Assembly (NCBI RefSeq): GCF_001652585.1
Contig: NZ_LWLG01000015.1
Location: forward strand, 30,001-62,000
Length of the DNA: 32,000 nt
DNA from: Thermosulfurimonas dismutans
GTDB lineage: Bacteria; Desulfobacterota; Thermodesulfobacteria; Thermodesulfobacteriales; Thermodesulfobacteriaceae
Direction of reading: 5' to 3'
The position numbers and the translations under genes are program-made. Shown one piece after another: positions 1,721-30,178 of the stretch (within the stretch, counting starts at the first letter, position 1; every line of letters begins with the position of its first letter). Under the pieces are notes generated by a model. It searched no databases. It was not told the origin of the DNA and was given only the letters and a program-made list of their open reading frames with translations.

Positions 1721-1722
1721 CT

Positions 1723-3674: not shown

Positions 3675-3695
3675 GCTGTTTTTTAGGTTATATTA

Positions 3696-3724
3696 TTGAC
3701 CACGAGTTTGAAAGATACTATGTT
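3696..3724 (+). promoter_or_regulatory. Candidate sigma70-type promoter directly abutting the ftsH start codon
   Basis: TTGACC (3696-3701), 17 nt, TATGTT (3719-3724). The ftsH ATG is at 3733, only 8 nt after the -10 box, and no Shine-Dalgarno sequence lies in between. Confidence 0.35.
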
Positions 3725-3732
3725 TTCTGAAC

Positions 3733-6478: not shown

Positions 6479-6480
6479 TA

Positions 6481-7590: not shown

Positions 7591-7592
7591 CT

Positions 7593-8666: not shown

Positions 8667-8679
8667 TCCCCTCTCTCTC

Positions 8680-13676: not shown

Positions 13677-14153
13677 ATGAAGGGAAAGAGTCAAAGCAAG
13701 TGGTTAAGATTCCTGATTACTTTGCTTATCGGCTTGGGGTTGTTAGTTATGGGAAAAGCTTCATGGGCGAGCCAGGATAAGGAACACGAAGCGGTAGGTG
13801 ATGAAACCATCCAGGCGGAAAACTGCCCCCTCCCGGTCTTACTAGAGAATGAACTCGAGGAAAAGACCGTTCTCAAGAACCTCTACTGTGAACTCAGGGA
13901 AAACACCCTGATCATCAAAGGAAAAGTTCACAACCTCTCCCATACCGTACTCTCCGGGGTGGAGGTGGAAGCGGCCCTGGTGGGTGCCGGAAATGCGGTC
14001 CTGGCCCGACAGGATGTCCTTACCGTGCCGGAGATCCTGAGGAGTAAACGGCACAAGTTCGGCTACTTTACCATCAAGCTGCCTTATTTCTCGAAGGCCA
14101 GGAAGATTATTCTCAAGATTACTGCCGAGAGACAAGAAGTTGAGGAAGATTAG
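13677..14153 (+). CDS. Small secreted protein of unknown function (signal peptide; beta-rich; two Cys)
   Basis: 158 aa. Strong SD. N-terminal signal peptide KWLRFLITLLIGLGLLVMGKASWA|SQ. The mature part has no Met, 2 Cys and 4 His. I recognised no family. Confidence 0.6.
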   Translation: MKGKSQSKWLRFLITLLIGLGLLVMGKASWASQDKEHEAVGDETIQAENCPLPVLLENELEEKTVLKNLYCELRENTLIIKGKVHNLSHTVLSGVEVEAALVGAGNAVLARQDVLTVPEILRSKRHKFGYFTIKLPYFSKARKIILKITAERQEVEED

Positions 14154-15626: not shown

Positions 15627-16730
15627 ATGAAAGATAGATTCGGGATAAACAAAAAAAGGTTGGCTATCCTAATCCTGGCCCATCTTATAGGGGCCATCTT
15701 CTGGCATTTAACTGGTTACTCCTTTCCGAGTTCTAAAAACGATAACCGCTATCCCCAAACATTTCTTAAAAAGACGGTCGCCGTAAAGGTTGCTCGAATA
15801 AGAAAGGGAGAGATCTCCGAGACTGAGGTAGCTTACGGAACGGTCATCCCTGCTCCAGGAGCGGTGGAGATTATCTCGATCCCTTTTGAAAGCCAGGTAA
15901 GGCGTATTTTTGTGAGTGAGGGCGAAGAGATTAGCCCCGGAACTCCCTTGCTTGAGCTCGCTCCAAGTCCAGATAGCCTTTTGAAGCTTGAGGTGGCCCA
16001 AACGGCTTACAAGATGGCTAAAAAGAAACTCACCCAGGTCAAAAAGAAAAAGGCTCTTAAATTGGCCACTAATCAGGAATTGCTTCAGGCGGAACAGGCC
16101 TTTCAGGAGGCTAGACTTAGGCTCGAAAGTCTCAAGAAGAAGGGACTCGGAAAGACCAAGACCCTCAAGGCCTCGCAAGACGGGATCGTCGGCAAGGTTT
16201 ATGTCCAAGAAGGAGCCATCGTCCCGGCAGGAGGCCCTTTGCTAGAGATCGTAACCGGAGGGGCCCTTGAAGTCAGACTAGGAGCCGAACCAGAGGATAT
16301 TTCTCGCCTGAAACCCGGAGAAAAAGTAAGACTTTTCCCGGTTAACAGACCGGCTAAGTCTGCCATAGAAGGCATTATCCGGGCCGTCTCCCGCTCGGTG
16401 AATCCTTCAACTCGGCTGGTGAACGTCTTTGTAGTCCCTGTCTCTCACAAAGACCTACTTCTTAATGAGTATGTCCGGGGCGAGATAATCGTTGCTGCTA
16501 AAGAAGCTCTCCTTGTTCCTCGTTCTGCGGTTCTTCCGGAAGGAGATCATTATGTCCTTTTTACCATCAAGGATGGTCGAGCCCGGAAACACACGGTCAA
16601 GATAGGTCTGGAAACCGAATCTCAGGTGGAGGTTATCGGCCAGGATCTCCATCCTGGAGATTTGGTGGTCATCCTTGGGAACTATGAACTTGAAGACGGA
16701 ATAGCCGTTCGGACGGAGAAAATAGAGTGA
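15627..16730 (+). CDS. RND efflux periplasmic adaptor (MFP/HlyD family), copy 1
   Basis: 367 aa. N-terminal anchor helix, lipoyl-like halves (GEEISPGTPLLEL ... GAIVPAGGPLLEI) flanking a K/E-rich coiled-coil hairpin, then beta-barrel/MP domains. GTGA overlap with the RND gene. Confidence 0.85.
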   Translation: MKDRFGINKKRLAILILAHLIGAIFWHLTGYSFPSSKNDNRYPQTFLKKTVAVKVARIRKGEISETEVAYGTVIPAPGAVEIISIPFESQVRRIFVSEGEEISPGTPLLELAPSPDSLLKLEVAQTAYKMAKKKLTQVKKKKALKLATNQELLQAEQAFQEARLRLESLKKKGLGKTKTLKASQDGIVGKVYVQEGAIVPAGGPLLEIVTGGALEVRLGAEPEDISRLKPGEKVRLFPVNRPAKSAIEGIIRAVSRSVNPSTRLVNVFVVPVSHKDLLLNEYVRGEIIVAAKEALLVPRSAVLPEGDHYVLFTIKDGRARKHTVKIGLETESQVEVIGQDLHPGDLVVILGNYELEDGIAVRTEKIE

Positions 16731-19700
16731 ATGTGGTTGAGTGGATGCAAAGCCACCGCCGTTCGATTCTCTTTTTGATTGCTATATTGGCTCTAGGAGG
16801 ACTGGCTGCCAGTTTTAGACTCCCGGTGGCCCTCTTCCCCCACGTGGATTTTCCCCGCGTGGAGGTGAAACTAGAGGCCGGTGACCGACCCGCGGAACGC
16901 ATGGCCATTGAGGTGACCCGCCCGGTGGAGGAGGCCATCAGGTCTGTTCCTGGAGTACGAAGCATCCGTTCAACTACCAGCCGAGGCAGCGCCGATATCT
17001 CCATCAACTTCGATTGGGGAGAAGACATGGTGGCGGCCATGCTTCAGGTAGAATCGGCCATAAACCAGGTCCTTCCCCGCCTCCCCCGGGGAACTTCTTT
17101 CACCGTAAGGCGCATGGACCCCACCGTCTTTCCAGTTTTGGCCTATAGTCTCACCTCTGACACCCATTCTCTGGTTGAACTGAGAGATCTAGCCCTTTAC
17201 CAGTTACGGCCTCTGCTTTCCACCGTTAAAGGGGTGGCCAAGGTTGGAGTCCAAGGAGGGGCGGAGGAAGAATACGAGGTCATGATCGATCCGGCCAAGC
17301 TGGATGCCTTGGGGCTTTCGATAGACGATGTTGCCAGGGCCCTTTCAGCGGCCAATGTCATCAAGGCCGTAGGACGTTTGGAAGACCACTATAAACTCTA
17401 TCTAGTCATCTCGGACACCCGCTTTCAGAGCCTGAAAGAAATCAAAGAGACCATCATCCGGGCCGGCAAGAATGGACTTGTTCGTCTGGACGATATTGCT
17501 ACTGTGCGCCGAGGTACCGCTCCTCAATGGATCAGGGTCACAGCCGACGGCCACGATGCCGTACTCCTCCTAATTTATCAACAACCTCGGGGTAATACCG
17601 TTGAGATAGCTAAGGAGGTCAAGAAAAAGCTGGCTGAATTTCGCAAACATCTTCCCCTAGGAATCAAAATTGCCAAGTGGTATGACCAGAGCGAGCTCAT
17701 CCTCTCGGCGGCCGGGAGCGTAAGGGATGCGGTGCTTATAGGCCTCCTTTTTGCCGCCCTGGTCCTTTGGCTGTTTTTGCGGAACCTCAAGATGACTTTT
17801 ATTGCCGCCGTCTTGGTTCCGAGTGTCCTCGCAGCTACCATCATCCTCCTCTACGTCCTCCACATGAGCTTCAACATCATGACCCTGGGAGGCCTGGCCG
17901 CGGCCGTGGGTCTCATCATCGACGACATGATCGTCATGGAGGAACATATCGTAAGAAGGCTTGGAGAACTGGCCAATCAGCAGCTTGGGATCGCCACGGC
18001 TGTTCGGGAGCTTTCTAGGCCGCTTGCCGGCTCCTCGGCCTCGACGACCATCATTTTTGCTCCCCTGGCCTTTCTCTCCGGGGTAACCGGGGCCTTTTTT
18101 AAGGCCCTCTCTCTTACCATGGCCGCAAGCCTTCTGATCTCCTTTTTTGTGGCCTGGTTGGGGGTTCCTATCCTGGCAAATCATCTGCTTACCCAGAAAG
18201 ACGCCGAAAAGGAAAGGCCCGGGAGATGGGCTTCCCGGTTCTATGAAAGATATGAGAGTTTCATGAAGAGCATTATGGCCCGATCCTGGCTCATTATTCC
18301 AGTACTTTTGATTTTGGTGGGTATCGGCTGGATAGCTTATCATCGGTTAGGCTCTGGCTTCATGCCTAAAATGGATGAGGGAGGGTTTGTCCTTGATTAT
18401 CGAGCTCCTTCTGGGACCTCTCTTACCGAAACGGATCGTCTCCTGCGTCAAGTCGAGATGATATTGCAAGAGACGCCAGACGTAGAGACCTATTCCCGGA
18501 GGACCGGACTATCTCTGGGGGGCCATATTACTGAGGCCAACGAGGGCGATTTCTTCGTCCGGTTGAAGCCCCCACCCCGGAGGGATATCGAGGCTGTGAT
18601 GGAGGACATAAGAGGCCGTATAGAGCGCAGGGTCCCAGGGCTTGAGATCGAGATGGCCCAGTTGATGGAAGATCTCATAGGAGATCTTACGGCTGTCCCG
18701 CAGCCCATAGAGATAAAGCTCTTTTCCGATAACGGTACTCTCTTGCGGAAACTGGCTCCCAAAGTAGCCGAAGAAATAAGAAAGATCCCCGGCGTGGTGG
18801 ATGTAAGAGATGGGATCGTTCTGGCCGGCGACGCCCTGGTCATCCATGTTGACCGGGATCGGGCGGCCCTTGAAGGAGTGGATCCCGAATGGGTAACCAG
18901 AATGCTCTCTTATTACCTTGGTGGCGCGGTCACCACCCAGATTCAGAAGACTCCCAAAATGGTGGGAGTTCGAGTCTGGATCCCAAGCCATCTCAGAGAT
19001 ACCGCTTCCAAGGTCGAGGCCCTCCGCCTGCGGGCTCCCGATGGACATCTATTCCCTTTGAGGCGTATCGCCAGGGTGGAGGTGCTCACCGGTCAACCCC
19101 AGATAATGCACGAAGACCTAAAGAGGATGGTGGCCGTTACCGGACGTATCAGCGGTCGGGATATGGGATCGGTCATCCGGGATGTAAAGAGGGTGCTTAA
19201 TCGTCCGGGACTCATTCCCAAAGGGGTCTATTATGAGCTCGGTGGTCTTTACCGTCAGCAACAAATTGCCTTTGCCGGGCTTTTGGCCGTTTTCGTGTCC
19301 GCGGTGCTTCTGGTCTTTTTGCTTCTCCTATTTCTCTATGAAAGTTTCCGGATGGCTATCGCCGTAATGGCAACCATCCTTTTGTCTCTGGCGGGAGTCT
19401 TTGTAGGTCTCTGGATTACCCATACCGAGATCAATATCTCCTCCATGATGGGGCTTACCATGATCGTGGGCATTGTTACCGAAACAGCCATTTTCTATCT
19501 CTCCGAATATCGTCTGCTTCCGCGCCATGTACCGTATAAAACGGCCTTGATCCTTGCCGGGAGAAATCGCCTGCGGGCGGTGGCCATGACCACGGTGGCT
19601 GCCATTTTGGCCCTTATGCCCCTGGCTCTCGGAATTGGTCAGGGAGCAGCTATGCTGAAGCCCCTGGCCATCGCCATAATTTCTGGTCTCTGTCTTCAAT

Positions 19701-19768
19701 TGCCGCTGGTCCTCGTGGTTTTGCCGGCCTTATTGGCGCTTATTAAAAGAGAATATCAAACAGGTTAA
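16727..19768 (+). CDS. RND efflux transporter permease (AcrB/CusA/CzcA superfamily), copy 1
   Basis: 1013 aa with a GTG start. 12-TM/2-large-loop architecture. TM4 motif GLIIDDMIVMEEH and TM10 region GIVTETAIFYLSEY. N-terminus VEWMQSHRRSILFLIAIL is typical of the family. Confidence 0.93.
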   Translation: MNVVEWMQSHRRSILFLIAILALGGLAASFRLPVALFPHVDFPRVEVKLEAGDRPAERMAIEVTRPVEEAIRSVPGVRSIRSTTSRGSADISINFDWGEDMVAAMLQVESAINQVLPRLPRGTSFTVRRMDPTVFPVLAYSLTSDTHSLVELRDLALYQLRPLLSTVKGVAKVGVQGGAEEEYEVMIDPAKLDALGLSIDDVARALSAANVIKAVGRLEDHYKLYLVISDTRFQSLKEIKETIIRAGKNGLVRLDDIATVRRGTAPQWIRVTADGHDAVLLLIYQQPRGNTVEIAKEVKKKLAEFRKHLPLGIKIAKWYDQSELILSAAGSVRDAVLIGLLFAALVLWLFLRNLKMTFIAAVLVPSVLAATIILLYVLHMSFNIMTLGGLAAAVGLIIDDMIVMEEHIVRRLGELANQQLGIATAVRELSRPLAGSSASTTIIFAPLAFLSGVTGAFFKALSLTMAASLLISFFVAWLGVPILANHLLTQKDAEKERPGRWASRFYERYESFMKSIMARSWLIIPVLLILVGIGWIAYHRLGSGFMPKMDEGGFVLDYRAPSGTSLTETDRLLRQVEMILQETPDVETYSRRTGLSLGGHITEANEGDFFVRLKPPPRRDIEAVMEDIRGRIERRVPGLEIEMAQLMEDLIGDLTAVPQPIEIKLFSDNGTLLRKLAPKVAEEIRKIPGVVDVRDGIVLAGDALVIHVDRDRAALEGVDPEWVTRMLSYYLGGAVTTQIQKTPKMVGVRVWIPSHLRDTASKVEALRLRAPDGHLFPLRRIARVEVLTGQPQIMHEDLKRMVAVTGRISGRDMGSVIRDVKRVLNRPGLIPKGVYYELGGLYRQQQIAFAGLLAVFVSAVLLVFLLLLFLYESFRMAIAVMATILLSLAGVFVGLWITHTEINISSMMGLTMIVGIVTETAIFYLSEYRLLPRHVPYKTALILAGRNRLRAVAMTTVAAILALMPLALGIGQGAAMLKPLAIAIISGLCLQLPLVLVVLPALLALIKREYQTG

Positions 19769-19773
19769 GAAAA

Positions 19774-20820
19774 ATGAGGACTATCTTTTCGGTCGCTTGC
19801 GTATTTTTTCTGATTATATCTTTGATCCAATTCGTAGAAGCGGCCAAGGTCGAACCGTCTCTCATCAAAGTTTCTACCCCGGTGAGAAGAGACTTTCGTC
19901 GGACTGTCCCTTTTGTGGGGAAGGTGTTTTCCAAAAAGAGCGTAAGGATAACGGCGCTCACGCCGGGTCGGATCGTCTCGATAGGCGTTCCCGATGAGAG
20001 CCGGGTGAGGGCCGGAGAAGTCCTCTTCGTCCTGGGCGGCCCGGAGGTGAAAAGGAGGCTTGCCACCCTAAGGTCACAAGTGGCCGTTCTTGAAAAGGAA
20101 ATCTCTTTGGCCGAGGAGGCTGTGAGGTTAAAGAGGGAAGGAGTTAAGGCCAAGATCATCCCTTACGGAGAGCTCCTTAACGCCGAAAAGCATCTTCTGC
20201 AACTCAAAAATGAACTTGTGGCCCGGAAAAACGAACTATACCTTTTTGAAACCCGGCTGCGGATCAGGGCCTCGATTTCGGGAATCTTTACCCGGCGAAG
20301 GGTCTCTATCGGTCAGAGGGTGGAAAAGGGAGCGGTTCTGGCTGAAGTCTTGGACCCGAAGGCTCTCTGGGTTAAGGCCATCGTCTTCCCCCCGGAAGGC
20401 GTCAGCCTCTCCGGCAAACCGGCCCTGATCCAGCTTCCGGGCCGCACCCTTTCCGCCAGGGTGGCGAGGGTGGCCCCCGAACGGACCCCGGCGGGAGGGA
20501 TAACGGTCTTTCTCGAAGGGAGGGATATTTCAAGGTCCCTGGCCCCGGGTGAGCCCGTGAGGGGAGTGGTGATCCTCGAGGAACATCGAAAGGCCCTGGC
20601 CGTCCCCGAAGAGGCCCTCGTCTATGACGAAGCCGAAAGGGCTTACGTCTTCGTCAAAAGCGAAAAGGGGTTTGAGAAGCGGATGGTCAAGACCGGGCTT
20701 TCCGGGGATGGTTTCGTAGAGGTCGTCTCTGGTCTCAGAGAAGGGGAAAAGGTGGTGATTAAGGGGGCCTACGAACTCTTTTATCGAGATTTTAGTCGGA
20801 TTTACAGAGTTCCCGATTAG
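19774..20820 (+). CDS. RND efflux periplasmic adaptor (MFP/HlyD family), copy 2
   Basis: 348 aa. Signal/anchor MRTIFSVACVFFLIISLIQFVEA. Lipoyl halves (RVRAGEVLFVLG ... RVEKGAVLAEV) around a coiled-coil. C-terminal VSGLREGEKVVIKGAYEL. Confidence 0.85.
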   Translation: MRTIFSVACVFFLIISLIQFVEAAKVEPSLIKVSTPVRRDFRRTVPFVGKVFSKKSVRITALTPGRIVSIGVPDESRVRAGEVLFVLGGPEVKRRLATLRSQVAVLEKEISLAEEAVRLKREGVKAKIIPYGELLNAEKHLLQLKNELVARKNELYLFETRLRIRASISGIFTRRRVSIGQRVEKGAVLAEVLDPKALWVKAIVFPPEGVSLSGKPALIQLPGRTLSARVARVAPERTPAGGITVFLEGRDISRSLAPGEPVRGVVILEEHRKALAVPEEALVYDEAERAYVFVKSEKGFEKRMVKTGLSGDGFVEVVSGLREGEKVVIKGAYELFYRDFSRIYRVPD

Positions 20821-20824
20821 GAAG

Positions 20825-21829
20825 GTGCGTGAGGTGCCTCTTACAGAAGCTAGGAGAATATCCCTGCGATTCTTTGTTCTTCTGGGTGCGTTGGGAGCCA
20901 TTCTCGGGCTTGAGTTCTATGAACATGTTTGCGCCCTTCCAGCTACAGATTGGAATACTCGCAATCTTTCTAGAATAAGGATTAAGGATCCGCATGATTT
21001 TTCATTCGCCGTATTTGGAGATAGCCAGTTCAGCATCTATGCCTTTGAAAGCCTCTTAAGGGACATTGACCAAGATCCTGAAATCTCCTTTGTCATTGCC
21101 TTGGGAGATATGGTCCATTCAGGAAGCAAGACATCGTATTCCCTTTTTTTGGATCTTATCCAAAAGAACCTTCACAAACCCCTAGTTACGGTCATCGGCA
21201 ATCACGAACTAAAAGGAGGCGGTTATCCGCTTTATACTCGGATCTTCGGCCGGCCTTATTACTCCTTTCGTATCGGAAGGACCTGTTTCTTGATCCTGGA
21301 TGATGCCGCAAGAAAGCTTAACCTCAAAGAAAGATCCTGGCTTGAAGGAGAACTCAGGAAGAGCCGGGACCTTTGCGACCACCGTTTGGTTTTTCTCCAC
21401 ATTCCCCTTTATGATCCCCGGCCTCACGAATACCACTGTCTACCCGAAAAAGAGGCCAAATTTCTTTCGAGGGTTTTTAGGGGCTACGGGGTCTCTCACG
21501 TATTTGCCGGACACATCCATGGTTATTTTCATGGAAACTGGAATGGCATTCCTTACACCATCACCGGCGGGGCAGGAGCTAGACTTTACGGCGGGGATCC
21601 GAGACATTTCTTCTACCATTATCTCAAAGTAAAGGTCATAAACGGTGTTCTTGACGTGGAAGTGAAACCCATTTTCGTTCCGGGCCCCAAATGGTTCGAT
21701 CATACCCTTTACTTTGTCTACACCTATCTCTTTGACCCTCATTGGTTAGAAGCGGCCCTGTGGATGATCGTTTTGGGGCTAATCTTTCCCCTGATCTGGA
21801 AAAAATTTCGAAAAGGACCCGGCAAATGA
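20825..21829 (+). CDS. Membrane-anchored calcineurin-like metallophosphoesterase (one TM helix at each end)
   Basis: 334 aa. Motifs FGDSQ, GDMVHSG, GNHE, FLHIPLY and GHIHGY. N-terminal helix FFVLLGALGAILGL and C-terminal helix AALWMIVLGLIFPLIW followed by KKFRKGPGK. The start is ambiguous (GTG 20825 or GTG 20834). ATGA overlap with the downstream RND gene. Confidence 0.85.
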   Translation: MREVPLTEARRISLRFFVLLGALGAILGLEFYEHVCALPATDWNTRNLSRIRIKDPHDFSFAVFGDSQFSIYAFESLLRDIDQDPEISFVIALGDMVHSGSKTSYSLFLDLIQKNLHKPLVTVIGNHELKGGGYPLYTRIFGRPYYSFRIGRTCFLILDDAARKLNLKERSWLEGELRKSRDLCDHRLVFLHIPLYDPRPHEYHCLPEKEAKFLSRVFRGYGVSHVFAGHIHGYFHGNWNGIPYTITGGAGARLYGGDPRHFFYHYLKVKVINGVLDVEVKPIFVPGPKWFDHTLYFVYTYLFDPHWLEAALWMIVLGLIFPLIWKKFRKGPGK

Positions 21830-24800
21830 GGGGATTTCTGCGCTGGCTTATTGACAGACCGCCCCTCATGCTTCTTTTGGTTGCATCCATCGTTTTTGCC
21901 GGGGTGTACGCCCTTTGGCACCTGCCGGTAGATCTTTTCCCCAATCTTGATCTTCCGGTGGTAAACATTGTTACTCATTATCCCGGGGCTGCTCCCGAGG
22001 ATATGGAACTTCTCGTTACCCGCCCTATTGAAGACGAAATGCGAGGCCTACCAGGGGTCAAACGGGTGGCCTCGGTCTCGGTTCAGGGCATCTCCAAGGT
22101 CACGGTGGAGTTTGGCCCTGGTATTTCGGTCAGAGAGGCCCGAGAACTCGTTCAGGCGAGGCTCGCCCGGACCGCTGGTCTCTTGCCGCGCGGGGCCGTC
22201 CCCAGGCTCGAAAACATCGGTACCACCCTTCAGGAGGTGCTCGGATATGTGGTCTACGGCTCGAAGGACCTCGTGGAACTGCGAAATCTCATCCGGTTTA
22301 CCCTCACCAATCGGCTCATGGGTATTCCCGGGGTCTCCTCGGTGGAGGTCTTTGGGGGTGATAGGCGGGCCTTTATTATCCGGGTAAGGCCAGAGGCCCT
22401 TGCCCGTCTCGGACTCGGCATTTCGGATCTCGAGCTAGCTCTAAGACGCCACAATGCCTCTGAGGTAGCCGGTTTCCTTACTAGAGGTGGACGGGAGTAT
22501 GTGATCCGTGGAGATGCCCGTCTGCAAACTATTGAAGACTTGAAAAACCTCTATCTAAAGAGCGCCGATGGGGAGGCGGTTCCTCTTTCGGCGGTGGCCG
22601 AAGTCTTTGAAGGAGTGGCTCCCAAGCATTACGAGGTCAGGGGAGACGGTCAACCGGCAGTGGCCTTTTACGTGCGTAAGCAACCCGGTGCTAGTTCTAT
22701 TGAGGTCGCCCGGGCCGTGGAAAACGCGGTGGAGGAATTCAAGGCCCTCCTTCCTCCGGGAACAAAGATCAAAAAATTCTACGATCAGTCAGAGATCATA
22801 AAAGAGGCCCGGGAAACCATTTCCAGTGATCTTTTGCTCGGGGCGGCCCTGGCAGTGACCGTCCTCTATCTTTTCATAGGGACGATGAGGCCTACCCTCA
22901 TAGTGGCCGCCACCATCCCACTCACCCTGCTGGTCACCCTAGTCCTAATGAAGATCCTGGGGCTTTCGCTCAATGTCATCACTTTTTCGGCGCTCACGCT
23001 TGCCGTGGGGATGATCGTGGACGACGCCATTGTGGTCACGGAGAACGTCTCCCGGCACCTGGAGATGGGGAAAGCATCCCCAGAGGCGGCCTTGGCAGGC
23101 ACGGTAGAAATCACCCCGCCCGACGCCGCCGGGACCTTCACCACTGTGGCGGCCTTTCTCCCCCTGGCCCTGGTGACCGGTATCGCCGGCCTTTTCCTGC
23201 GGCCCTTCGGTTTGGTGGTGAGTCTGGCCCTCCTAGTCTCCCTCATCCTTTCCCTCTCGTTGGTCCCGGTGCTTCTCGGGAATATGCCCCCGGTGCGGGA
23301 ACCCCTCCGGCCCCCGGCCGGGAGGCTTCTCACGGGTCTGAGGGGTCTCCTATCTCGGGTCCTCTCCTATAGCCTTGATCATCCCCGTAAAGTGATCGTT
23401 CTGAGTATGGGGGGCCTTACCTTGGCCGGTCTTTCGGTCTTTCTTGGCTCGGCAAAGCTCCTCCCTCCGGTGGACGAGGGGGCCATCCTGGTAGAATACA
23501 TCATGCCCCCAGGCACCTCTCTCAGGGAGAGCAATCGAATTGGAGAAGAGCTTGTCCGCCTAGCCATGACCGATCCCGATGTGGCCTGTGTGTATCGTCG
23601 CACCGGCTCCCCAGAGGTGGGTTACCAGATCGAGGGTGTCAACCGGGGAGAAATTATGATCAAGCTCAAGCCCAAGGGGGAACGTTACCGGGGAGTAGAG
23701 GAGATCATGGCCGATCTCAAGAGGGCTTATGCTCGCTTTCCCGGGGTGGTCTTTCTTTATCACCAGCCCACCCAGGAGAAGATGGACGAGAGTCTTTCCG
23801 GGCTTCCGGCCCTCTTCGGGGTGACTGTCTACGGTGAAGACCTTGACACCCTGGCGTACCTGGCCGGAAAGGTAGAAGAGATCATGGACGAGGATCCGGC
23901 CATTACCAATGTGGTCAATCCCCTGAAGACAAGAAGGCCTCAAATCGTAGTAAGGCTGAGGTATCCCGACCTTGCCCGTTTCGGGGTGAGCCTGGAGGAG
24001 GTGTTTTCCACCCTGAGGGCCACCTTTGGGGGCCTTGAGGCCACACGCATCGTGAGACAGCGGGAGGAGATCGATGTCCTTCTCGAATTTGATTGGCCCG
24101 AGGCTTTCGGCCTAAAAAGACTTGCCCTTCTACCTATCCGGACAGCGAAAGGGGAACTGGTACCCCTCAGGAAGGTGGCTGATATCCGGGTGGAATACCT
24201 CCCCGGAGAGATCACCAGGCTCAACGGTGAACGGGAGGTCACCCTGCTGGCCGAAGTGGAGGGGAACCTATTCAAGGTGGCCTCAAGCCTCAAGAGGCGT
24301 CTTGCGGCCCTTTCGCTTCCCCGGGGCTACCGGGTGGAGGTGACCGGACAGTACAAGGTTCTCAAAAGGAGCCTGTGGGAGATGATGTTTATCCTTTCCG
24401 GGGCTATCATTTTTGTCTATCTTATATTGTTTGCGGAGTTTAAGTCCTGGAAACGCCCTTTGGTGATATTGACTACGGCCCCTTTTTCCTTGGTAGGGGC
24501 TATCCTGGCCCTCTGGATAACCCGTCAGGGCCTGAACATCTCGGTGGCCATGGGCGTGCTCACCCTTATAGGAATCTGTGTCAACAATGCCATCGTCCTT
24601 CTCGACTTTGCCGAACAAAAAATAAGGGAAGGGATGGACAGAAAGGAGGCCCTGATTGAAGCGGCTCAGACCAGGCTCAGGCCAATCCTCCTTACCAGCC
24701 TGACAACTATCTTTGCCCTTATTCCTACGGCCCTGGGCCTCGGAGCGGGAGCTGAGTACTTTCGAGGATTTGCTATAGCTGTTATAGGAGGCCTCGTGAC

Positions 24801-24861
24801 GGCTACTCTGGTTTCGTTTATTCTGGTGCCCTGCATAGAAGTTTTTGGGAGTACAAGTTAG
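21826..24861 (+). CDS. RND efflux transporter permease (AcrB superfamily), copy 2
   Basis: 1011 aa from ATG 21826 (MRGFLRWLIDRPPLMLLL, a typical RND N-terminus). TM4 GMIVDDAIVVTEN and TM10 GICVNNAIVLLDFAEQ. The longer ORF from 21742 overlaps the phosphoesterase and is not needed. Confidence 0.93.
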   Translation: MRGFLRWLIDRPPLMLLLVASIVFAGVYALWHLPVDLFPNLDLPVVNIVTHYPGAAPEDMELLVTRPIEDEMRGLPGVKRVASVSVQGISKVTVEFGPGISVREARELVQARLARTAGLLPRGAVPRLENIGTTLQEVLGYVVYGSKDLVELRNLIRFTLTNRLMGIPGVSSVEVFGGDRRAFIIRVRPEALARLGLGISDLELALRRHNASEVAGFLTRGGREYVIRGDARLQTIEDLKNLYLKSADGEAVPLSAVAEVFEGVAPKHYEVRGDGQPAVAFYVRKQPGASSIEVARAVENAVEEFKALLPPGTKIKKFYDQSEIIKEARETISSDLLLGAALAVTVLYLFIGTMRPTLIVAATIPLTLLVTLVLMKILGLSLNVITFSALTLAVGMIVDDAIVVTENVSRHLEMGKASPEAALAGTVEITPPDAAGTFTTVAAFLPLALVTGIAGLFLRPFGLVVSLALLVSLILSLSLVPVLLGNMPPVREPLRPPAGRLLTGLRGLLSRVLSYSLDHPRKVIVLSMGGLTLAGLSVFLGSAKLLPPVDEGAILVEYIMPPGTSLRESNRIGEELVRLAMTDPDVACVYRRTGSPEVGYQIEGVNRGEIMIKLKPKGERYRGVEEIMADLKRAYARFPGVVFLYHQPTQEKMDESLSGLPALFGVTVYGEDLDTLAYLAGKVEEIMDEDPAITNVVNPLKTRRPQIVVRLRYPDLARFGVSLEEVFSTLRATFGGLEATRIVRQREEIDVLLEFDWPEAFGLKRLALLPIRTAKGELVPLRKVADIRVEYLPGEITRLNGEREVTLLAEVEGNLFKVASSLKRRLAALSLPRGYRVEVTGQYKVLKRSLWEMMFILSGAIIFVYLILFAEFKSWKRPLVILTTAPFSLVGAILALWITRQGLNISVAMGVLTLIGICVNNAIVLLDFAEQKIREGMDRKEALIEAAQTRLRPILLTSLTTIFALIPTALGLGAGAEYFRGFAIAVIGGLVTATLVSFILVPCIEVFGSTS

Positions 24862-24864
24862 CTT

Positions 24865-26250
24865 ATGGTAACCCAAATGAAGGCGGCTTTTAGAGCTTTT
24901 TGGGCTCCCTGTTTAATGGTTCTAGTGCTGTATGTGGTTCCCCTTTCTTTTCCTTTGACTTCCATCCAGGAAGCCCGTCGGGCAGAGATCGTTCAAGAGG
25001 CCGTAATACTCGGAAACTGGCTTATTCCTAGCCTCAATGGTGAGCCTTATGTGGTGAAACCCCCGTTTCATATTTGGATAACAGGCGTCTTCGCTTGGCT
25101 TTTTGGTGTTAAGGAAGCTGTGCTAAGGATATCCTCTTTTCTTTCGGCGCTTGGCATAGGAATTGTTCTCTATCGCCTGACCCTAAAGGTTTGTAGCCGC
25201 ATGGAAATAGCCCTTCTTTCCGTGCTAATCCTGATTTCTGCTCCCAAGTTCTTTTTCTTCTCTCACCGGGTGGAAATCGATATGTTGCTGGCCTTTCTTT
25301 ATTTTTTAAGCTTCTATTTCTTCTGGAGCTACCTCTCCGAGGAGAAAAGCCGATTCCTTTACCTGGGATATTTTGTGGCTGGACTGGCGGCCCTAACCAA
25401 GGGCCCTTTCATTTTTTTTCTCTTTCCGCCGCTGGCGATTTACGGCCTCCTCTACAAAGATCGCCGGATCTGGCGGGTACTTTTCAATCCCCTGGGTTGG
25501 TTTCTTCTTCTGGCTCCGGTCTGCGGCTGGTATTTTTACGCCTACAAAAAGCTTTCGGCCGCGGCTTTTTACGAATTCATCTATACCGACATCTTTGGAA
25601 GGATTTCCACCGGCAAAAGGGATCCCTTTTGGCATTACCCAGGGGCTCTTCTTCTGGCCTTCATGCCTTGGACCTTGGCTTTGCTTTACCGTCCGGGGAA
25701 GTTTTTGCGGGAGGCGTTGCGTGGCCAGCAGTCCCTTATCTTCCTATCTTTTTTGGTGCCGATTACCCTTCTCAGCTTTACGGCCGCCAAATACAGCAAG
25801 TATCTCCTTCCTTTTTACCCCTTCTTTGCCTTGTTCCTTGCCCGCCTGATATTCAGCCAGCTTGAAAACCGAGCCTTTCCAATACGAAAATTTATGGTCG
25901 GGACTTCTTTTATAGTTCTAATGATGGTGGCCGGTACTCTGGTTATGGAATACCATTCAAACCGGCTCCGCTTCGACTCTCTATCGGCGGCGAGGCCCTA
26001 TCTATCCCTGCCTTATCCCTATTACAGTTACCGAAAGGAACCCAACTATCTTCTGGTCTTTTATCACGGGGGCCCTATTCCGGTGGTAAGAGAAGAAGAT
26101 CTCAAGGGTCTCAAGCCCCCCTTTGTGCTCTTAGTGGAAACCATCCCCGGGGCCGAGGTCTCTTTGCCTAGGTCAGACCTTGGAAAACTCGCCGAGATTT
26201 CTCCATTCTACAGAAAAAAACGTCGCCTTTTGATCTTTGTTTTTTCCTGA
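24865..26250 (+). CDS. ArnT-like GT-C glycosyltransferase (third paralog)
   Basis: 461 aa and polytopic. Loop SIQEARRAEIVQEAVILGNWLIPSLNGEPYVVKPPFHIW matches the ArnT/PMT catalytic-loop pattern. Starts 3 nt after the RND2 stop. Confidence 0.8.
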   Translation: MVTQMKAAFRAFWAPCLMVLVLYVVPLSFPLTSIQEARRAEIVQEAVILGNWLIPSLNGEPYVVKPPFHIWITGVFAWLFGVKEAVLRISSFLSALGIGIVLYRLTLKVCSRMEIALLSVLILISAPKFFFFSHRVEIDMLLAFLYFLSFYFFWSYLSEEKSRFLYLGYFVAGLAALTKGPFIFFLFPPLAIYGLLYKDRRIWRVLFNPLGWFLLLAPVCGWYFYAYKKLSAAAFYEFIYTDIFGRISTGKRDPFWHYPGALLLAFMPWTLALLYRPGKFLREALRGQQSLIFLSFLVPITLLSFTAAKYSKYLLPFYPFFALFLARLIFSQLENRAFPIRKFMVGTSFIVLMMVAGTLVMEYHSNRLRFDSLSAARPYLSLPYPYYSYRKEPNYLLVFYHGGPIPVVREEDLKGLKPPFVLLVETIPGAEVSLPRSDLGKLAEISPFYRKKRRLLIFVFS

Positions 26251-26253
26251 AGT

Positions 26254-27228
26254 TTACCGGTTCTGGCGGATACGAGCGGGGTAGGGAGGTATTTTCTCGC
26301 GGTAAAGGAGGTCTTTTAAGACCGCGAGTTTTTCAGAAATTCCTAGTGCCTTCTGCACCCGTCCGAAATAGTAAAGACCGAAGGGGAAGTTTTGGAGATA
26401 CCAGAAGAGCCAGAGGTTGAACCTTTTCTCCCGCCATTCTTCGGGCAGGAGCTTCAGGTGTTCAGCCATGAGTAAGACCGGCTCAAAGGGATTGGGTGCC
26501 TCGGGTATGGGGTCTCCCTTGAGAAAGGCCCTCGCATCCCGAAAGATCCAGGGGCGAAGGAGGGCCGTACGGCCAATCATAACGCCGTCACAGCCGGTGG
26601 TCTCAAGCATCCTGAGGACGTCTTCCGGAGAAAATATGTCCCCGTTTCCGATGACTGTGGCTCCGGTTTCACGCTTCAAGGCTGCGATTTCTTCCCACCG
26701 AGGCGGCCGCCGGAAACCATCCTCCGGAGCCCGGGGGTGTAAGATCAGGATCTCAACCCCTTCGGCAAGCAACCCTTCCGCAAAGGCGATGAGCCGCCTG
26801 AGATCGTGCCCCGGGGTGGAACGAAGTTTGGCGAAAAGGGGTTTGCGGGTCATCTTACGCCCCCCGGCCGCTATTTTGCGGGCGAGCTCCGGCTCCGAAA
26901 GAAGGGCCGCACCCCAGCCGTAGCGTTTGGCCCGTCCCCGGGCGCAGCCGAAATTTAGGTCGTAGCCATAGAAGTCAAAGCGAGCCTCAAGCCGTTCCAG
27001 GGCTTGGACTATGACCTCGGGCTCCCTTCCGGCAAGCTGAGCGATAAGGGGCCGGTCGGCCTCGGTGTAGAAGAGGTAGGGATCCCTTTCCGGAGGCTGG
27101 TGCACGATGGCCCTGGCGCTCACCATCTCGGTGTAGAAGAAGTCCGGCGGCCCGTAGTGGGCCACGAGCCGCCTGAAGGCCACATGCGTGAGCCCATCCA
27201 TGGGAGCTAGGAAGAGGGTAGCCCGCAT
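26254..27228 (-). CDS. tRNA-dihydrouridine synthase family protein (divergent)
   Basis: ~324 aa from ATG 27228 (MRATLFLAPMDGLTHVAFR). Dus-like blocks LAPMDG, NFGC, GNGDI and MIGRTALLRPWIF. The start ATG shares one base with the rarA stop (TAATG). A GTG at 27252 is an alternative start. Confidence 0.72.
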   Translation of the reverse strand: MRATLFLAPMDGLTHVAFRRLVAHYGPPDFFYTEMVSARAIVHQPPERDPYLFYTEADRPLIAQLAGREPEVIVQALERLEARFDFYGYDLNFGCARGRAKRYGWGAALLSEPELARKIAAGGRKMTRKPLFAKLRSTPGHDLRRLIAFAEGLLAEGVEILILHPRAPEDGFRRPPRWEEIAALKRETGATVIGNGDIFSPEDVLRMLETTGCDGVMIGRTALLRPWIFRDARAFLKGDPIPEAPNPFEPVLLMAEHLKLLPEEWREKRFNLWLFWYLQNFPFGLYYFGRVQKALGISEKLAVLKDLLYREKIPPYPARIRQNR

Positions 27229-28562
27229 TAACCTTTCTTCCCTCGCCACCACTTAAGAAGTCTTTCCCGGATGGTCTTCTCGAAGCCCCGGTTCGTAGGG
27301 CGGTAGTAGCGACGGTCTCGGAGTTCGTCCGGGAGATACTGCTGCTCCACGAACCCCTCTGGAAAATCGTGGGCGTATTTGTAGCCCCGGCCGTAGCCTA
27401 GGGCCCGCATGAGGGCCGTTACCGGATTGCGCAGGTGCATAGGCACAGGCAGAGCCCCGTGGCGACGGGCGTCGGTCCTGGCGGCCGAAAGGCCGCGGTA
27501 GACGGCGTTGCTCTTGGGTGCACAGGCTACATAGACCGCGGCCTGAGCCAGCGCCAGCTCTCCCTCCGGACTTCCCAGAAACTCGTAGGCCTCCTTGGCA
27601 GAGACCGCTACCACTAGCGCCATGGGGTCGGCGTTTCCCACGTCCTCGGAGGCCGCCACCACGATCCTGCGGGCGATGTAAAGGGGGTCCTCCCCGGCCT
27701 CAAGCATACGGGCGAGCCAGTACAAAGCCGCGTCCGGGTCGCTTCCCCGAAGGCTCTTGTGAAAGGCTGATATCAAGTTGTAGTGCTCCTCCCCGCTCTT
27801 GTCGTAGCGGAGGGGCTTTTCGAGGAAGACCCTCTCGAGGTCGAGAACTCCGATCCGACGAGAACCGTCCTCTCTGGGCAGCGTGCTCTCCACCAGGGTC
27901 TCAAGCATATTTAAGGCCACCCGGGCGTCACCTTCGGCGGCCTGGGCGAGGAGATCAAGGGCCTTCGGTTCAACTTCGATATTCTCCCTACCGTAACCCC
28001 TTTCGGGATCACTTAAGGCCCTTTCAAGGAGTTTGCGGATGTCTTCGGAACTCAGGGGTTTGAGGACCAGGATCTTACAGCGGGAAAGGAGGGGGGCGAT
28101 GACCTCGAAGGAGGGGTTTTCGGTGGTGGCTCCGATGAGAGTCACCAGACCGGATTCCACATACGGCAAAAGAAAGTCCTGCTGAGCCTTGTTGAAGCGA
28201 TGGATCTCATCAATAAAAAGTACGGTCTTATGGCCTAAAGTAGCCATCCGACGGGCTTCTTCTATTACTTTTCTAAGGTCTTTTACTCCGGAGTCCACAG
28301 CCGAGAGGGTAATCAATCTGGCCCCTATCTCCTTGGCCAGAAGCCTTGCGAGCGTGGTCTTACCGCAGCCTGGTGGCCCCCAGAGGATGAGGGAAGGGAG
28401 TTTTTTTTGAGAGACAATACGGCTTAGAAGTCGGTCCTTGCCTAGGAGGTGACTTTGCCCCAGAAATTCAGAAAAGCTCCGGGGCCGAAGCCGTTCGGCC
28501 AGCGGTGGCCTAGGAGCAAAGAGGCTACTTTCGCTTCCGTGTTCTTTTTTCCGCTGAGCCAC
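27228..28562 (-). CDS. rarA: Replication-associated recombination protein A (AAA+ ATPase RarA/MgsA)
   Basis: 444 aa with a GTG start. N-terminus PLAERLRPRSFSEFLGQSHLLG, Walker A GPPGCGKTT, Walker B LFIDEIHRFNKAQQD, C-terminal MgsA domain (YDKSGEEHYNLISAFHKSLRGSDPDAALYWLARM). Confidence 0.94.
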   Translation of the reverse strand: MAQRKKEHGSESSLFAPRPPLAERLRPRSFSEFLGQSHLLGKDRLLSRIVSQKKLPSLILWGPPGCGKTTLARLLAKEIGARLITLSAVDSGVKDLRKVIEEARRMATLGHKTVLFIDEIHRFNKAQQDFLLPYVESGLVTLIGATTENPSFEVIAPLLSRCKILVLKPLSSEDIRKLLERALSDPERGYGRENIEVEPKALDLLAQAAEGDARVALNMLETLVESTLPREDGSRRIGVLDLERVFLEKPLRYDKSGEEHYNLISAFHKSLRGSDPDAALYWLARMLEAGEDPLYIARRIVVAASEDVGNADPMALVVAVSAKEAYEFLGSPEGELALAQAAVYVACAPKSNAVYRGLSAARTDARRHGALPVPMHLRNPVTALMRALGYGRGYKYAHDFPEGFVEQQYLPDELRDRRYYRPTNRGFEKTIRERLLKWWRGKKG

Positions 28563-28642
28563 TTACCGTAAACATCCTGGTGAAACAGAATGTACAGAGA
28601 CTGGTAACAATATTCCACGAAATTAGCATGAAAAGAAGGGCA

Positions 28643-30178
28643 CTACCTTTCATGGGCCTTCTCCTTTCTTCTGGCAAGATGGACCAGCACCCCAAAACCC
28701 AGGAAGATGGCCACCAGAAGGAACCTCGTAACCCAAATAGTAGGCGAAGCCTCCTTAAGATACCCCGGAAGCTCCTTGAAAATCCACCAACCGGTGATGA
28801 TGGATAGGAAAAACGGCGTCACATATCGCATAATAAAAAAGAAGATCCGTGGGAGTTTTATAAAGCCGCCCCGATTAATTTCCCGCCAAGCGGTCGAGGG
28901 ATTGAAGGCCCAAAAAAAGATTACCACCTCGCACAAGGCAAAGACCACTACGAAGAATGTTCCGGCCCAGAAGTCCATTTCATCCAAGGCCTTGGGAAGC
29001 AGGATGGCGAAGTGGGCCAAGACGAAAAGGGTAAGCATGGTGAGGGTTACGGCCTTTTTTCGGGAAAAACCGAATTCATCCTCGAGGAAGGCTATCACCG
29101 GTTGGGTGATGGCCACCGAGGAGGTAATGCCAGCAAAGAAGAGGAGGATGAACCAGAAAAAGCCCAAGAGGGAGCCCGCCGGAAGATTGGCGAAGATGGC
29201 CGGAAGACTTACGAAAGCGAGGTTGAAGGCCCCACTAGCGGCGATGAGTTGGGCGGCCGCTACTCCGAAAAAGGCCGCCGCCGCCGGAATAGCGATGGAG
29301 CCTCCGAGGACGATCTCCGCAAATTCGTTAAGCGAGGAAGCCGTAAGGGCCGAAAGGGTAAGATCGTCATTACGTTTGAGATAGGAGGCGTAGGTGATGA
29401 TAGCTCCGAAGCCGAGACTCAGGGTGAAAAAGACCTGACCTGCGGCTGCGAGCCAGACTTTAGGGTTGCCAAGCTCCTGCCACTTAGGTTCCCAGAGGAA
29501 GTTAAGCCCCTGAACGGCGCTACCGAGAGGGGTTTCAAGCGTTATGACCCGCATCATGAGGATGATAGCGAGAGCAAAAAGCACCGGCATGGCCACCTTA
29601 GCAAATTTCTCTATCCCACCCGAAATACCCCTGATCAAGATGGTGTAGTTTAGGAACATGGTGACGAGAAAAAAGAGGTAGGCCGCAAGCGAGGGGCGGT
29701 AGAATCCTTCGGCCCCCATGCCGGTATATTGGAGGAGGAACTCTTTGAAAGGTTTGAGATAGGCCTCAGAGGAAGCAGCCACCTCGGCTGAAATCTTGGG
29801 AAGCTTCCCGGTAAGGGCGAAAAAGGCGTAGCCTAAGGTCCAACTTTCGATGTAGACATAGTAGCACGAGACTACAAAAGGCACGAATAGCCCCAGGATA
29901 CCTACATAACGGGCGATGGGGTTTTTCCAAAGAAGTCCGAAGATGGCCGGGGTGGTCCCGTGTCCCCGGACGCCGCCGTAGCGGCCAATGCCCCATTCCA
30001 CCCACATGAGGGGAATGGCGATAAGAAGTAACGAAATCATGTAAGGGATCATAAAGATACCGCCACCGTTCTGGGCCGCCTGAGTGGGGAAACGCAGGAA
30101 GTTCCCCAAACCCACAGCATTTCCGGCCATGGCTAAAATCAAGCCGATCCGCGAGCCCCAGCGTTCCCTTTGTGCCAT
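28643..30178 (-). CDS. Neurotransmitter:sodium symporter (NSS/SNF) family amino-acid transporter, LeuT-like
   Basis: 511 aa. RIGLILAMAGNAVGLGNFLRFP, YYVYIESWTLG, FFTLSLGFGAIITYASY and FFAGITSS blocks. Collinear over the whole length with the Aquifex aeolicus LeuT sequence as I remember it. Confidence 0.93.
   Translation of the reverse strand: MAQRERWGSRIGLILAMAGNAVGLGNFLRFPTQAAQNGGGIFMIPYMISLLLIAIPLMWVEWGIGRYGGVRGHGTTPAIFGLLWKNPIARYVGILGLFVPFVVSCYYVYIESWTLGYAFFALTGKLPKISAEVAASSEAYLKPFKEFLLQYTGMGAEGFYRPSLAAYLFFLVTMFLNYTILIRGISGGIEKFAKVAMPVLFALAIILMMRVITLETPLGSAVQGLNFLWEPKWQELGNPKVWLAAAGQVFFTLSLGFGAIITYASYLKRNDDLTLSALTASSLNEFAEIVLGGSIAIPAAAAFFGVAAAQLIAASGAFNLAFVSLPAIFANLPAGSLLGFFWFILLFFAGITSSVAITQPVIAFLEDEFGFSRKKAVTLTMLTLFVLAHFAILLPKALDEMDFWAGTFFVVVFALCEVVIFFWAFNPSTAWREINRGGFIKLPRIFFFIMRYVTPFFLSIITGWWIFKELPGYLKEASPTIWVTRFLLVAIFLGFGVLVHLARRKEKAHER

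Follow-up and report, generated by a model that had tools for sequence, protein, structure and literature searches.

A membrane-anchored metallophosphoesterase encoded between RND pump genes of Thermosulfurimonas dismutans: a candidate carrier-lipid phosphoesterase of the periplasmic face

Metallophosphoesterases (MPEs) known to act on lipids, among them LpxH, PlcP, UpsH, PGAP5 and sphingomyelinase-like enzymes, cleave pyrophosphates or diesters and not monoesters. At the periplasmic face, the only enzymes known to us to act on undecaprenyl pyrophosphate (UndPP, also written C55-PP) are BacA and the PAP2 proteins, and the only MPE of this area of which we are aware, UpsH, works at the cytoplasmic face in Bacillus. 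In Bacillus subtilis this enzyme, also named YpbG, acts on a lipid linked to polyprenyl diphosphate and so frees undecaprenyl phosphate (UndP or C55-P) under envelope stress; it possesses a single transmembrane (TM) helix and a catalytic domain placed experimentally in the cytoplasm, and belongs to COG1408; its authors predicted that analogous MPEs occur in the stress regulons of other bacteria (Roney & Rudner 2025; PMC11898649). In the current work, a stretch of 32,000 nucleotides from Thermosulfurimonas dismutans (contig NZ_LWLG01000015.1, positions 30,001 to 62,000) was analysed, which is hereafter called the window and in whose numbering coordinates are given unless another locus is named. 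The element of interest is an MPE encoded between the adaptor (membrane fusion protein, MFP2) and the permease (RND2) of an RND pump, and followed by the gene of an ArnT-like glycosyltransferase of the GT-C class. From sequence and modelling it is strongly predicted that its catalytic domain lies on the outer face of the inner membrane, where the MPE may, as we tentatively propose at something short of an even chance, act in carrier-lipid turnover, with the pumps as an efflux arm.

Like UpsH, the window MPE is membrane-anchored and encoded in a putative envelope-stress unit; unlike UpsH, it carries two TM helices, and its catalytic domain is predicted to lie in the periplasm, i.e. the opposite topology. 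Orthology to UpsH, or membership of COG1408, was rejected, as a comparison with Escherichia coli YaeI, which we take to represent COG1408, gave a BLASTP E value of 0.016 covering the motifs only and an hhalign probability of 0.5%. A second described arrangement is the PlcP/Agt pair of Sinorhizobium, SAR11 and Pseudomonas aeruginosa (PA3219/PA3218), in which an MPE is encoded beside a GT4 glycosyltransferase under a two-component system and the resulting lipids protect against polymyxin. Ten or more members of the present family likewise occur in GT4-MPE pairs, and MPE-GT4 fusions exist, whereas the window is without a GT4 gene, the GT-C, arn and PAP2 partners of the family fall outside PlcP biology, and the two systems are likened here by gene context. 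With the UndPP phosphatases of the PAP2 and BacA types, and their DedA and DUF368 partners, the MPE shares a predicted periplasm-facing active site, and its family adjoins or is fused to UptA-like DedA proteins; unlike these phosphatases, it is a dimetal alpha/beta sandwich, and it co-occurs with PAP2, being probably no simple substitute for it. A periplasmic phosphatase accompanying surface-modifying transferases and a PmrAB-like two-component system is also found where LpxE/LpxF act with EptA, RgtD and ArnT, and in the case of PmrG, but nothing at the window locus points specifically to lipid A. LpxE/LpxF adopt the PAP2 fold and PmrG is a histidine phosphatase, both being unlike the MPE fold. 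Finally, enzymes are embedded in the RND operons ceoAB-opcM of Burkholderia (llpE) and smeVWX of Stenotrophomonas (smeU1/U2); llpE is lipase-like and smeU1/U2 are short-chain dehydrogenases, for which we know of no membrane tether, whereas the enzyme inside the present RND operon is a double-anchored MPE whose linkage recurs across phyla. By analogy, the MPE would thus extend a known kind, that of MPEs which are anchored in the membrane and, within envelope-stress regulons, act on lipid-linked phosphates, with UpsH and PlcP as the closest examples; literature searches brought up no account of an MPE that faces the periplasm and is linked to ArnT, DedA or RND genes.

The MPE is a genuine member of the PF00149 superfamily, as judged by Pfam, motifs and fold together. 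The Pfam profile matches residues 60-234 with 62.1 bits against a cutoff of 21.5, and five motifs are present (GDSQ, GDMVHSG, GNHE, FLHIPLY and GHIHGY), of which residues D66, D95, N126, H127, H192, H230 and H232 show no or almost no variation in an alignment of 35 homologs. The full set of calcineurin-like motifs, recognized in an earlier note based on the sequence of the window, is therefore conserved family-wide. An AlphaFold2 model generated with the same number of homologs attained a pLDDT of 90.7 and resembled Rv0805, purple acid phosphatases and GpdQ (E about 1e-12), which are the best solved relatives, while a search of the PDB with the family profile retrieved purple acid phosphatases, GpdQ, Rv0805 and SMPDL3A. 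An LpxH-like function was rejected, no LpxH being recovered at E<=0.01 in the PDB profile search, as was the PAP2 fold of LpxE/LpxF, since PF00149 alone was found by Pfam. Weak NCBIfam matches to SpdA and CpdA were obtained, and homologs carry the name CpdA in JGI annotation; the likeness to Rv0805, GpdQ and CpdA is at superfamily level, with 15-20% identity and scores far below cutoffs. The closest genome, that of Thermosulfurimonas marina, encodes an MPE which is 97% identical, and the family is sizeable and uncharacterised, comprising 591 clusters at 50% identity in a profile search at E<=1e-30.

Hydrophobic helices are predicted from the MPE sequence at residues 12-30 and 307-325. In the AlphaFold2 model the N-terminal helix spans residues 6-35 and the C-terminal TM helix residues 305-329, the latter being preceded by a short, aromatic interfacial helix of 14 residues (289-302), and a standard MPE core is joined to the membrane segments by no more than a few linker residues. 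Such short linkers at both ends would therefore hold the active site at the membrane surface. Among 33 members with two TM helices, the mean number of lysines plus arginines is 3.6 in the N-terminal tail and 3.5 in the C-terminal tail, versus 1.6 and 1.1 in the respective domain-side flanks; in 31 of the 33 the tails exceed the flanks in basic residues, and in none do they fall below them. Natural fusions point in the same direction. Protein P0129 (1144 aa) has the order TM1-MPE-TM2-PAS-PAS-HisKA-HATPase-REC, its MPE domain occupying the periplasmic sensor-domain slot of a histidine kinase; P0250, P0263 and a Pseudosulfitobacter plasmid protein (locus L091) are organized as TM1-MPE-TM2-GT4; and the proteins of L074 and P0138 as DedA-TM1-MPE-TM2. 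Because GT4 enzymes use nucleotide sugars, the GT4 part must face the cytoplasm, and as the kinase and GT4 parts follow TM2, the MPE catalytic domain is expected to be periplasmic. Positive-inside statistics and fusions thus both favour, as a prediction, the topology put forward in the earlier note, with helix anchors at both ends and a periplasmic catalytic domain.

Catalytic residues are retained only in the DedA fusions, whereas the MPE domain of the kinase and GT4 fusions is degenerate (e.g. FGGNEN, GEKE and SHIEG) and so would represent a binding domain and not an enzyme. Two observations may be added on these fusion loci. The hybrid histidine kinase P0129 (L173, 10001-13435) adjoins cheW and a methyl-accepting chemotaxis protein gene. 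The degenerate MPE-TM-GT4 fusion follows the gene of an LPG_synthase_TM protein in a two-gene cassette (L091, 3925-7214; L174, 6889-10303) that is carried by many Pseudosulfitobacter plasmids and by GCA_000215935.3, and which probably specifies a glycolipid synthase with an outward-facing pseudo-enzyme domain.

About 170 loci encoding relatives of the MPE were collected by exact-protein look-ups, a GTDB genome scan and a metagenome scan; a genome scan with the single MPE protein returned no matches, whereas the alignment-based scan did find relatives. Neighbouring genes were annotated by means of profiles for which the window and loci with Pfam labels supplied the seeds, and counts were taken after dereplication at 90%, which left 82 two-TM and 57 one-TM members. 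Single-linkage clustering at 50% identity merged everything into one cluster, and the independence of loci was accordingly judged from a neighbour-joining tree together with organism labels, those of metagenome-assembled genomes (MAGs) being used as deposited, so that some bins may be wrong. The two forms differ in length and setting. The two-TM form, to which the window MPE belongs, measures about 330-385 aa, whereas the one-TM form of about 290 aa is found mostly in Desulfobaccales-type MAGs in a proC/nadC/pdxA setting without envelope genes (L034, L044, L045 and about 25 similar loci); the latter served as an internal negative control and not as evidence. An envelope, two-component system or RND gene lies within four genes of 53 of the 82 two-TM members (65%), as against 4 of the 57 one-TM members (7%). 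Within two genes of the two-TM form, the partners are GT-C (15), DedA (13), response regulator (11), histidine kinase (11), GT4 (10), RND (8, or 10 with L090 and L092), PAP2 (6) and LtaS-like proteins (6). The family-wide constants are a sensor system together with GT-C and carrier-lipid genes. Family members are also present in MAGs labelled as Thermotogae, candidate phyla radiation (CPR) and archaeon.

This distribution bears on one rival explanation, namely that the MPE is a generic periplasmic phosphodiesterase for nucleotides or organophosphates, of the CpdA/Rv0805/GpdQ kind, which serves phosphate scavenging and whose position in the operon is meaningless. Its solved relatives, its weak SpdA and CpdA matches and the JGI name all fit such a role, but that likeness does not extend beyond the superfamily, and neither a double tether with short linkers nor the enrichment of envelope neighbours is to be expected of an enzyme for soluble substrates; we regard this explanation as most improbable. 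Other phosphatase genes were encountered in the course of the census: second, divergent MPE paralogs adjoin the focal MPE at L090 (8908-9966; Calditrichaceae) and at L008 (13201-14238, minus strand; 'Deltaproteobacteria'), and small phosphatases resembling dual-specificity and protein tyrosine phosphatases (DSP/PTP-like), a third phosphatase family there, are encoded in two-component system/MPE loci L009 (4466-4984) and L033 (3113-3697).

Fusions of DedA to PAP2, and of DUF368 to PAP2 or BacA, have been accepted as evidence for a function in C55-P recycling (PMC9876793, PMC9881974). In the present family, the DedA proteins associated with the MPE, including the fused ones, have UptA as their best or second-best NCBIfam match (34-120 bits, cutoff 250), and the PAP2 protein encoded by the first gene of the RND operon at L003 is most YbjG-like (168 bits versus a cutoff of 229). 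A triad of DedA, GT4 and MPE genes, often overlapping, was seen at 10-12 loci, and a Microgenomates MAG (CPR) carries the order PAP2-MPE-DedA-GT4. Both fusion and neighbour partners thus have carrier-lipid functions, and the link to polyprenyl-phosphate chemistry that the earlier note had suggested is a real one.

The same triads, together with the MPE-GT4 fusions, allow a PlcP-like remodelling to be considered, in which the head group of phosphatidylglycerol or phosphatidylethanolamine would be removed in the outer leaflet and the diacylglycerol converted into uncharged or cationic glycolipids, lowering anionic charge or phosphorus demand. The best matches of the GT4 neighbours are GlcNAc-phosphatidylglycerol synthase and alpha-monoglucosyl-diacylglycerol synthase (about 120 bits, below cutoff), and the PlcP MPE is indeed encoded beside the GT4 enzyme Agt, with glycolipids that guard against polymyxin (PMC8528852, PMC4796936). 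Yet a GT4 is missing from the window, the MPE domains of the GT4 fusions are catalytically degenerate, such remodelling would leave the GT-C, arn and YbjG-like PAP2 partners unexplained, and the likeness to PlcP drawn here is one of superfamily and gene context; a tblastn search of plasmids yielded no bona fide PlcP and brought up MPE-GT4 fusions instead. PlcP-like remodelling is consequently judged quite unlikely.

According to the mechanism that we favour, the window would constitute a stress-regulated envelope-defence island tied to a two-component system. At the periplasmic face, the MPE would act as a hydrolase of lipids linked to polyprenyl phosphate, cleaving a pyrophosphate or a phosphodiester in them; candidate substrates are C55-PP or a flipped but unused C55-P(P)-sugar, and the C55-P thus returned would enter the pool consumed by GT2/GT-C surface-modification pathways. 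Within the same regulon, the RND pumps would serve efflux as a defence against amphiphiles that act on the envelope, and would not be conveyors of lipid. Bce-type modules pair a transporter with an UndPP phosphatase, and the logic of pump plus MPE may be likened to these. We infer that the substrate is a membrane lipid and that the MPE acts at one of its phosphate linkages, and a polyprenyl-linked substrate is favoured on five grounds: among the fusions, an intact active site is found in those to UptA-like DedA alone; YbjG-like PAP2, DedA and GT2/GT-C proteins all produce or consume C55-P; the family reaches MAGs labelled Thermotogae, CPR and archaeon, which are without lipid A; lipid-directed MPEs cleave pyrophosphates or diesters; and UpsH, an envelope-stress MPE, frees UndP, albeit at the cytoplasmic face.

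Several points weigh against this mechanism. The family is uncharacterised biochemically and genetically, the DedA and PAP2 assignments fall under curated cutoffs, no DedA or PAP2 gene is present in the window, and the Thermotogae-labelled MAGs place the MPE among housekeeping genes. Considering that the GT-C reaction yields C55-P and not C55-PP, the need for a phosphatase is not obvious, and since PAP2 and MPE co-occur, simple redundancy as UndPP phosphatases is unlikely. The arn and LtaS-like neighbours fit an enzyme directed to lipopolysaccharide (LPS) equally well. Finally, co-regulation alone leaves unexplained a tight, cross-phylum linkage to RND genes which involves two orthogroups and overlaps of 4 nt.

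The LPS-directed alternative is best weighed against the GT-C enzymes and their surroundings. The GT-C encoded downstream of RND2 belongs, by sequence, to the ArnT fold family (PMT_2) but scores far too low for an ArnT equivalog: its only relative in the PDB is ArnT (5EZM, E=2.9e-14, residues 18-366), and the ArnT equivalog model gives 84.6 bits versus a cutoff of 567. Residues 35-41 of this protein and of its ortholog in Thermosulfurimonas sp. F29 read QEARRAE, where ArnT-like proteins have DExRYAE; the Glu, Arg and Glu of this loop, and a KPP motif, are invariant in the GT-C comparison. Orthologs are 47% (F29) and 28% (L031) identical. A GT-C encoded upstream, at 8680-10299, is also without the Asp of DExRYAE. 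It forms part of a divergent cluster composed of an ArnC-like GT2, an ArnB/PseC-like aminotransferase, a UDP-GlcNAc-3-dehydrogenase-like oxidoreductase and two ArnT-like GT-C proteins, which is arranged alike in the F29 locus. Neither arnA nor arnD, required for the synthesis of 4-amino-4-deoxy-L-arabinose (Ara4N), was found in the window locus, and on sequence grounds the cluster is probably the polyprenyl-phosphate-aminosugar arm of the island, analogous to Arn without ArnA and ArnD.

In the LPS-directed alternative, the substrate would be lipid A or the LPS core, which the MPE would strip of a phosphate, a diphosphate or a phosphoethanolamine group at the periplasmic face, thereby lowering surface charge or freeing a hydroxyl for glycosylation by the GT-C; LpxE/LpxF with RgtD or EptA, and PmrG, would be the functional analogues. 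GT-C is the commonest neighbour of the MPE (the 15 cases among 82 given above), which sustains the connection between the two that the earlier note had drawn, and at several loci the MPE gene overlaps arnT within a complete arnBCADT operon; the MPE abuts or overlaps a genuine arnT at L005 (514 bits versus the cutoff of 567), L020, L022 and L029 being similar. To this may be added the three ArnT-like GT-C proteins and the aminosugar pathway in the window, the resemblance of its two-component system to PmrA and heavy-metal types, and pairs of MPE and sulfatase-family genes reminiscent of lpxE-eptA. On the other hand, family members occur in the MAGs lacking lipid A mentioned above, and ArnT proper adds Ara4N onto a phosphate, so that removal of the latter would be counter-productive. 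Lipid-directed MPEs are, moreover, not monoesterases, the sulfatase-family neighbour is LtaS/OpgB-like and not EptA-like, and the fusion partners are flippase, GT4 and kinase, with no LPS enzyme among them. The earlier note had listed lipid A phosphate among possible substrates; taxonomic spread and carrier-lipid partners weaken this proposal, which stays viable by virtue of the arn and LtaS-like neighbours, and we hold it to be rather unlikely.

With respect to the two-component system, the response regulator of the window scores 211 bits with the PhoB model, 210 with that of heavy-metal response regulators and 193 with PmrA, each under its cutoff, and a response regulator is encoded at the equivalent position of the F29 locus. 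Kinases adjoining the MPE in Arn, GT-C, sulfatase and RND settings align with residues 8-455 of the window kinase at 30-35% identity. Such relatedness over the full length of the kinases, the abutment of regulator-kinase pairs and MPE in 11-17 of the 82 loci, and the full-length MPE domain that stands in for the sensor domain of hybrid kinase P0129 are consistent with a signalling accessory, or co-sensor, in which the MPE would sense or destroy a phospho-ligand of the periplasmic face and so tune the adjacent kinase. However, the kinase fusion has lost the catalytic residues, all of which are kept by the window MPE, and the window kinase possesses a periplasmic domain of its own of about 125 aa; a co-sensor function therefore appears very doubtful.

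Both pumps of the window appear, from their sequences, to be MdtB/AcrB-like, OMF-dependent exporters. Full-length ACR_tran permeases are encoded in one operon with MFPs and an outer membrane factor (OMF), as in tripartite pumps; the nearest solved relative of RND2 is MdtB (392 bits), and the two pumps obtain 676 and 577 bits with the NCBIfam model of the multidrug RND subfamily, under its cutoff of 1250. Lipid transport of the HpnN/MmpL type, a possibility raised in the earlier note, was abandoned: HpnN scored 35.7 bits versus a cutoff of 752, the MMPL match is confined to the C-terminal part, and an OMF and two MFPs accompany the MdtB/AcrB-like permeases. A heavy-metal (HME) function was also rejected, although Czc/Cus models gave fairly good scores for the adaptors and for RND2: TM4 reads VDDAIV or IDDMIV like that of AcrB, where CzcA-type pumps carry DFG-DGA-VEN, and the best match among solved structures is MdtB.

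The gene order RR-HK-OMF-MFP-MPE-RND-GT-C (RR, response regulator; HK, histidine kinase) is common only to the window and to Thermosulfurimonas sp. F29, whose locus is without MFP1-RND1. Because of this absence, and because MFP1 and RND1 are 55% and 71% identical to the pump adjoining an MPE at L013 ('Deltaproteobacteria' MAG), it seems that gain or loss of the first pump involved both of its genes together. Members of the RND1 orthogroup adjoin an MPE at L013 (71%), L003 (72%, partial), L083 (47%), L090 (48%) and L076 (47%), and those of the RND2 orthogroup at F29 (75%), L002 (59%), L047, L031 and L090 (41-42%) and L056 (46%), while MFP2 orthologs lie directly upstream of the MPE at F29 (75%) and L002 (44%). 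The arrangements include OMF-MFP-MPE-RND in an 'Acidobacteria' MAG, GT-C-OMF-MFP-RND-MPE in a Thermodesulfobacteriota MAG and an Aquificota MAG, OMF-MFP-RND-MPE-PAP2-HK-RR in a Calditrichota MAG, and PAP2-OMF-MFP-RND divergent from the MPE in groundwater 'Deltaproteobacteria' MAGs; L090 (Calditrichaceae) holds both pump types and two MPE paralogs, and at L056 the MPE and RND genes overlap by 4 nt as in the window. RND-linked members fall in at least four separate parts of the neighbour-joining tree, and an RND gene adjoins the MPE in about 10 of the 82 two-TM loci (about 12%). The linkage of RND and MPE is therefore real and recurrent across phyla, but a minority trait. Of the coupling to an RND transporter envisaged in the earlier note, the recurrence of orthologous pumps in shuffled order and in several phyla stands, whereas the exact order is limited to Thermosulfurimonas and the pairing to about 10 loci.

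It is this linkage that an enzyme-pump machine would explain best. In such a machine, the TM helices of the MPE would dock on RND2 or MFP2, and the pump would deliver or remove an amphiphilic substrate of the MPE, such as a lipid-linked intermediate or an antibiotic bound to a lipid pyrophosphate. Apart from the location of the MPE gene between MFP2 and RND2 with junctions of 4 nt, and the identical overlap at L056, it has in its favour that two RND orthogroups recur in shuffled order in genomes labelled as several phyla and on at least four separate MPE branches, L090 having both. As a specific version, a carrier-lipid-linked species would be caught in the outer leaflet by the pump, its phosphate link cut by the docked MPE, the lipid recovered and the remainder expelled via the OMF; the substrate may be a dead-end C55-P(P)-glycan, or C55-PP on which an antibiotic is clamped. 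If true, this would be the Gram-negative RND counterpart of target protection by BceAB, and no RND pump before it would have had a catalytic subunit as an obligatory part. With an RND neighbour in so small a part of the two-TM members, and with pumps that are ordinary OMF-dependent exporters, such a machine is nevertheless considered decidedly improbable, in its general as in its specific version, and RND coupling is the least supported element.

The coordinates of the locus are collected in Table 1. The four genes from MFP2 to GT-C have the positions, lengths and junctions (4, -4 and 3 nt in the open reading frame (ORF) map) as well as the identities initially assigned to them, all Pfam domain assignments in the operon being above gathering scores. 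The MPE starts with GTG, 4 nt past the MFP2 stop, an alternative GTG at 20834 having better Shine-Dalgarno spacing, and the ATG of RND2 overlaps the MPE stop codon as ATGA. Since the upstream genes are packed as tightly (OMF-MFP1, 0 nt; MFP1-RND1, 4-nt overlap; RND1-MFP2, 5 nt), the transcription unit would most simply comprise seven genes, OMF-MFP1-RND1-MFP2-MPE-RND2-GT-C (14223-26250), and not four. A scan for promoters and terminators gave counts at chance level. The 158-aa ORF had no family match in Pfam or NCBIfam and is missing from the F29 locus, where the histidine kinase and OMF genes abut. The upstream flank (506-5610) carries housekeeping genes (ftsA, ftsZ, a fumarate hydratase subunit gene and ftsH), and the downstream flank (26254-30178) dusB-like, rarA-like and sodium-dependent transporter genes; across both flanks, no mobility gene or GC break was found that would mark island edges.

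Table 1. Features of the MPE locus in the window
Feature	Position	Strand	Description
Divergent cluster	5591-11393	-	ArnC-like GT2, aminotransferase, oxidoreductase and two GT-C; probably Arn-analogous
Response regulator	11504-12190	+	OmpR family; generic best matches in NCBIfam, all below cutoff
Sensor histidine kinase	12180-13595	+	Two TM helices, periplasmic domain, HAMP
158-aa ORF	13677-14153	+	N-terminal hydrophobic segment; place in unit uncertain
OMF	14223-15626	+	Lipoprotein, LSGC lipobox; Pfam OEP 84 bits
MFP1	15627-16730	+	Adaptor of first pump; TIGR01730 125 bits, above cutoff
RND1	16727-19768	+	Permease; ACR_tran 739 bits
MFP2	19774-20820	+	348 aa; adaptor of second pump; TIGR01730 108 bits; Pfam HlyD_3/HlyD_D23
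MPE	20825-21829	+	334 aa; metallophosphoesterase, two TM; Pfam Metallophos
RND2	21826-24861	+	1011 aa; permease; ACR_tran 809 bits
GT-C	24865-26250	+	461 aa; ArnT-like; PMT_2 58 bits

Every surface polymer is limited by the recycling and rationing of C55-P, a process targeted by bacitracin, lipopeptides and lantibiotics. Considered in this setting, the MPE family is a candidate third class of outer-face phosphoesterase for carrier lipids, or for envelope lipids, and one that has also been recruited as a sensor domain of a kinase. It would moreover offer a handle on the coupling of efflux and surface modification in non-model diderms such as Thermodesulfobacteriota, Aquificota and Calditrichota.

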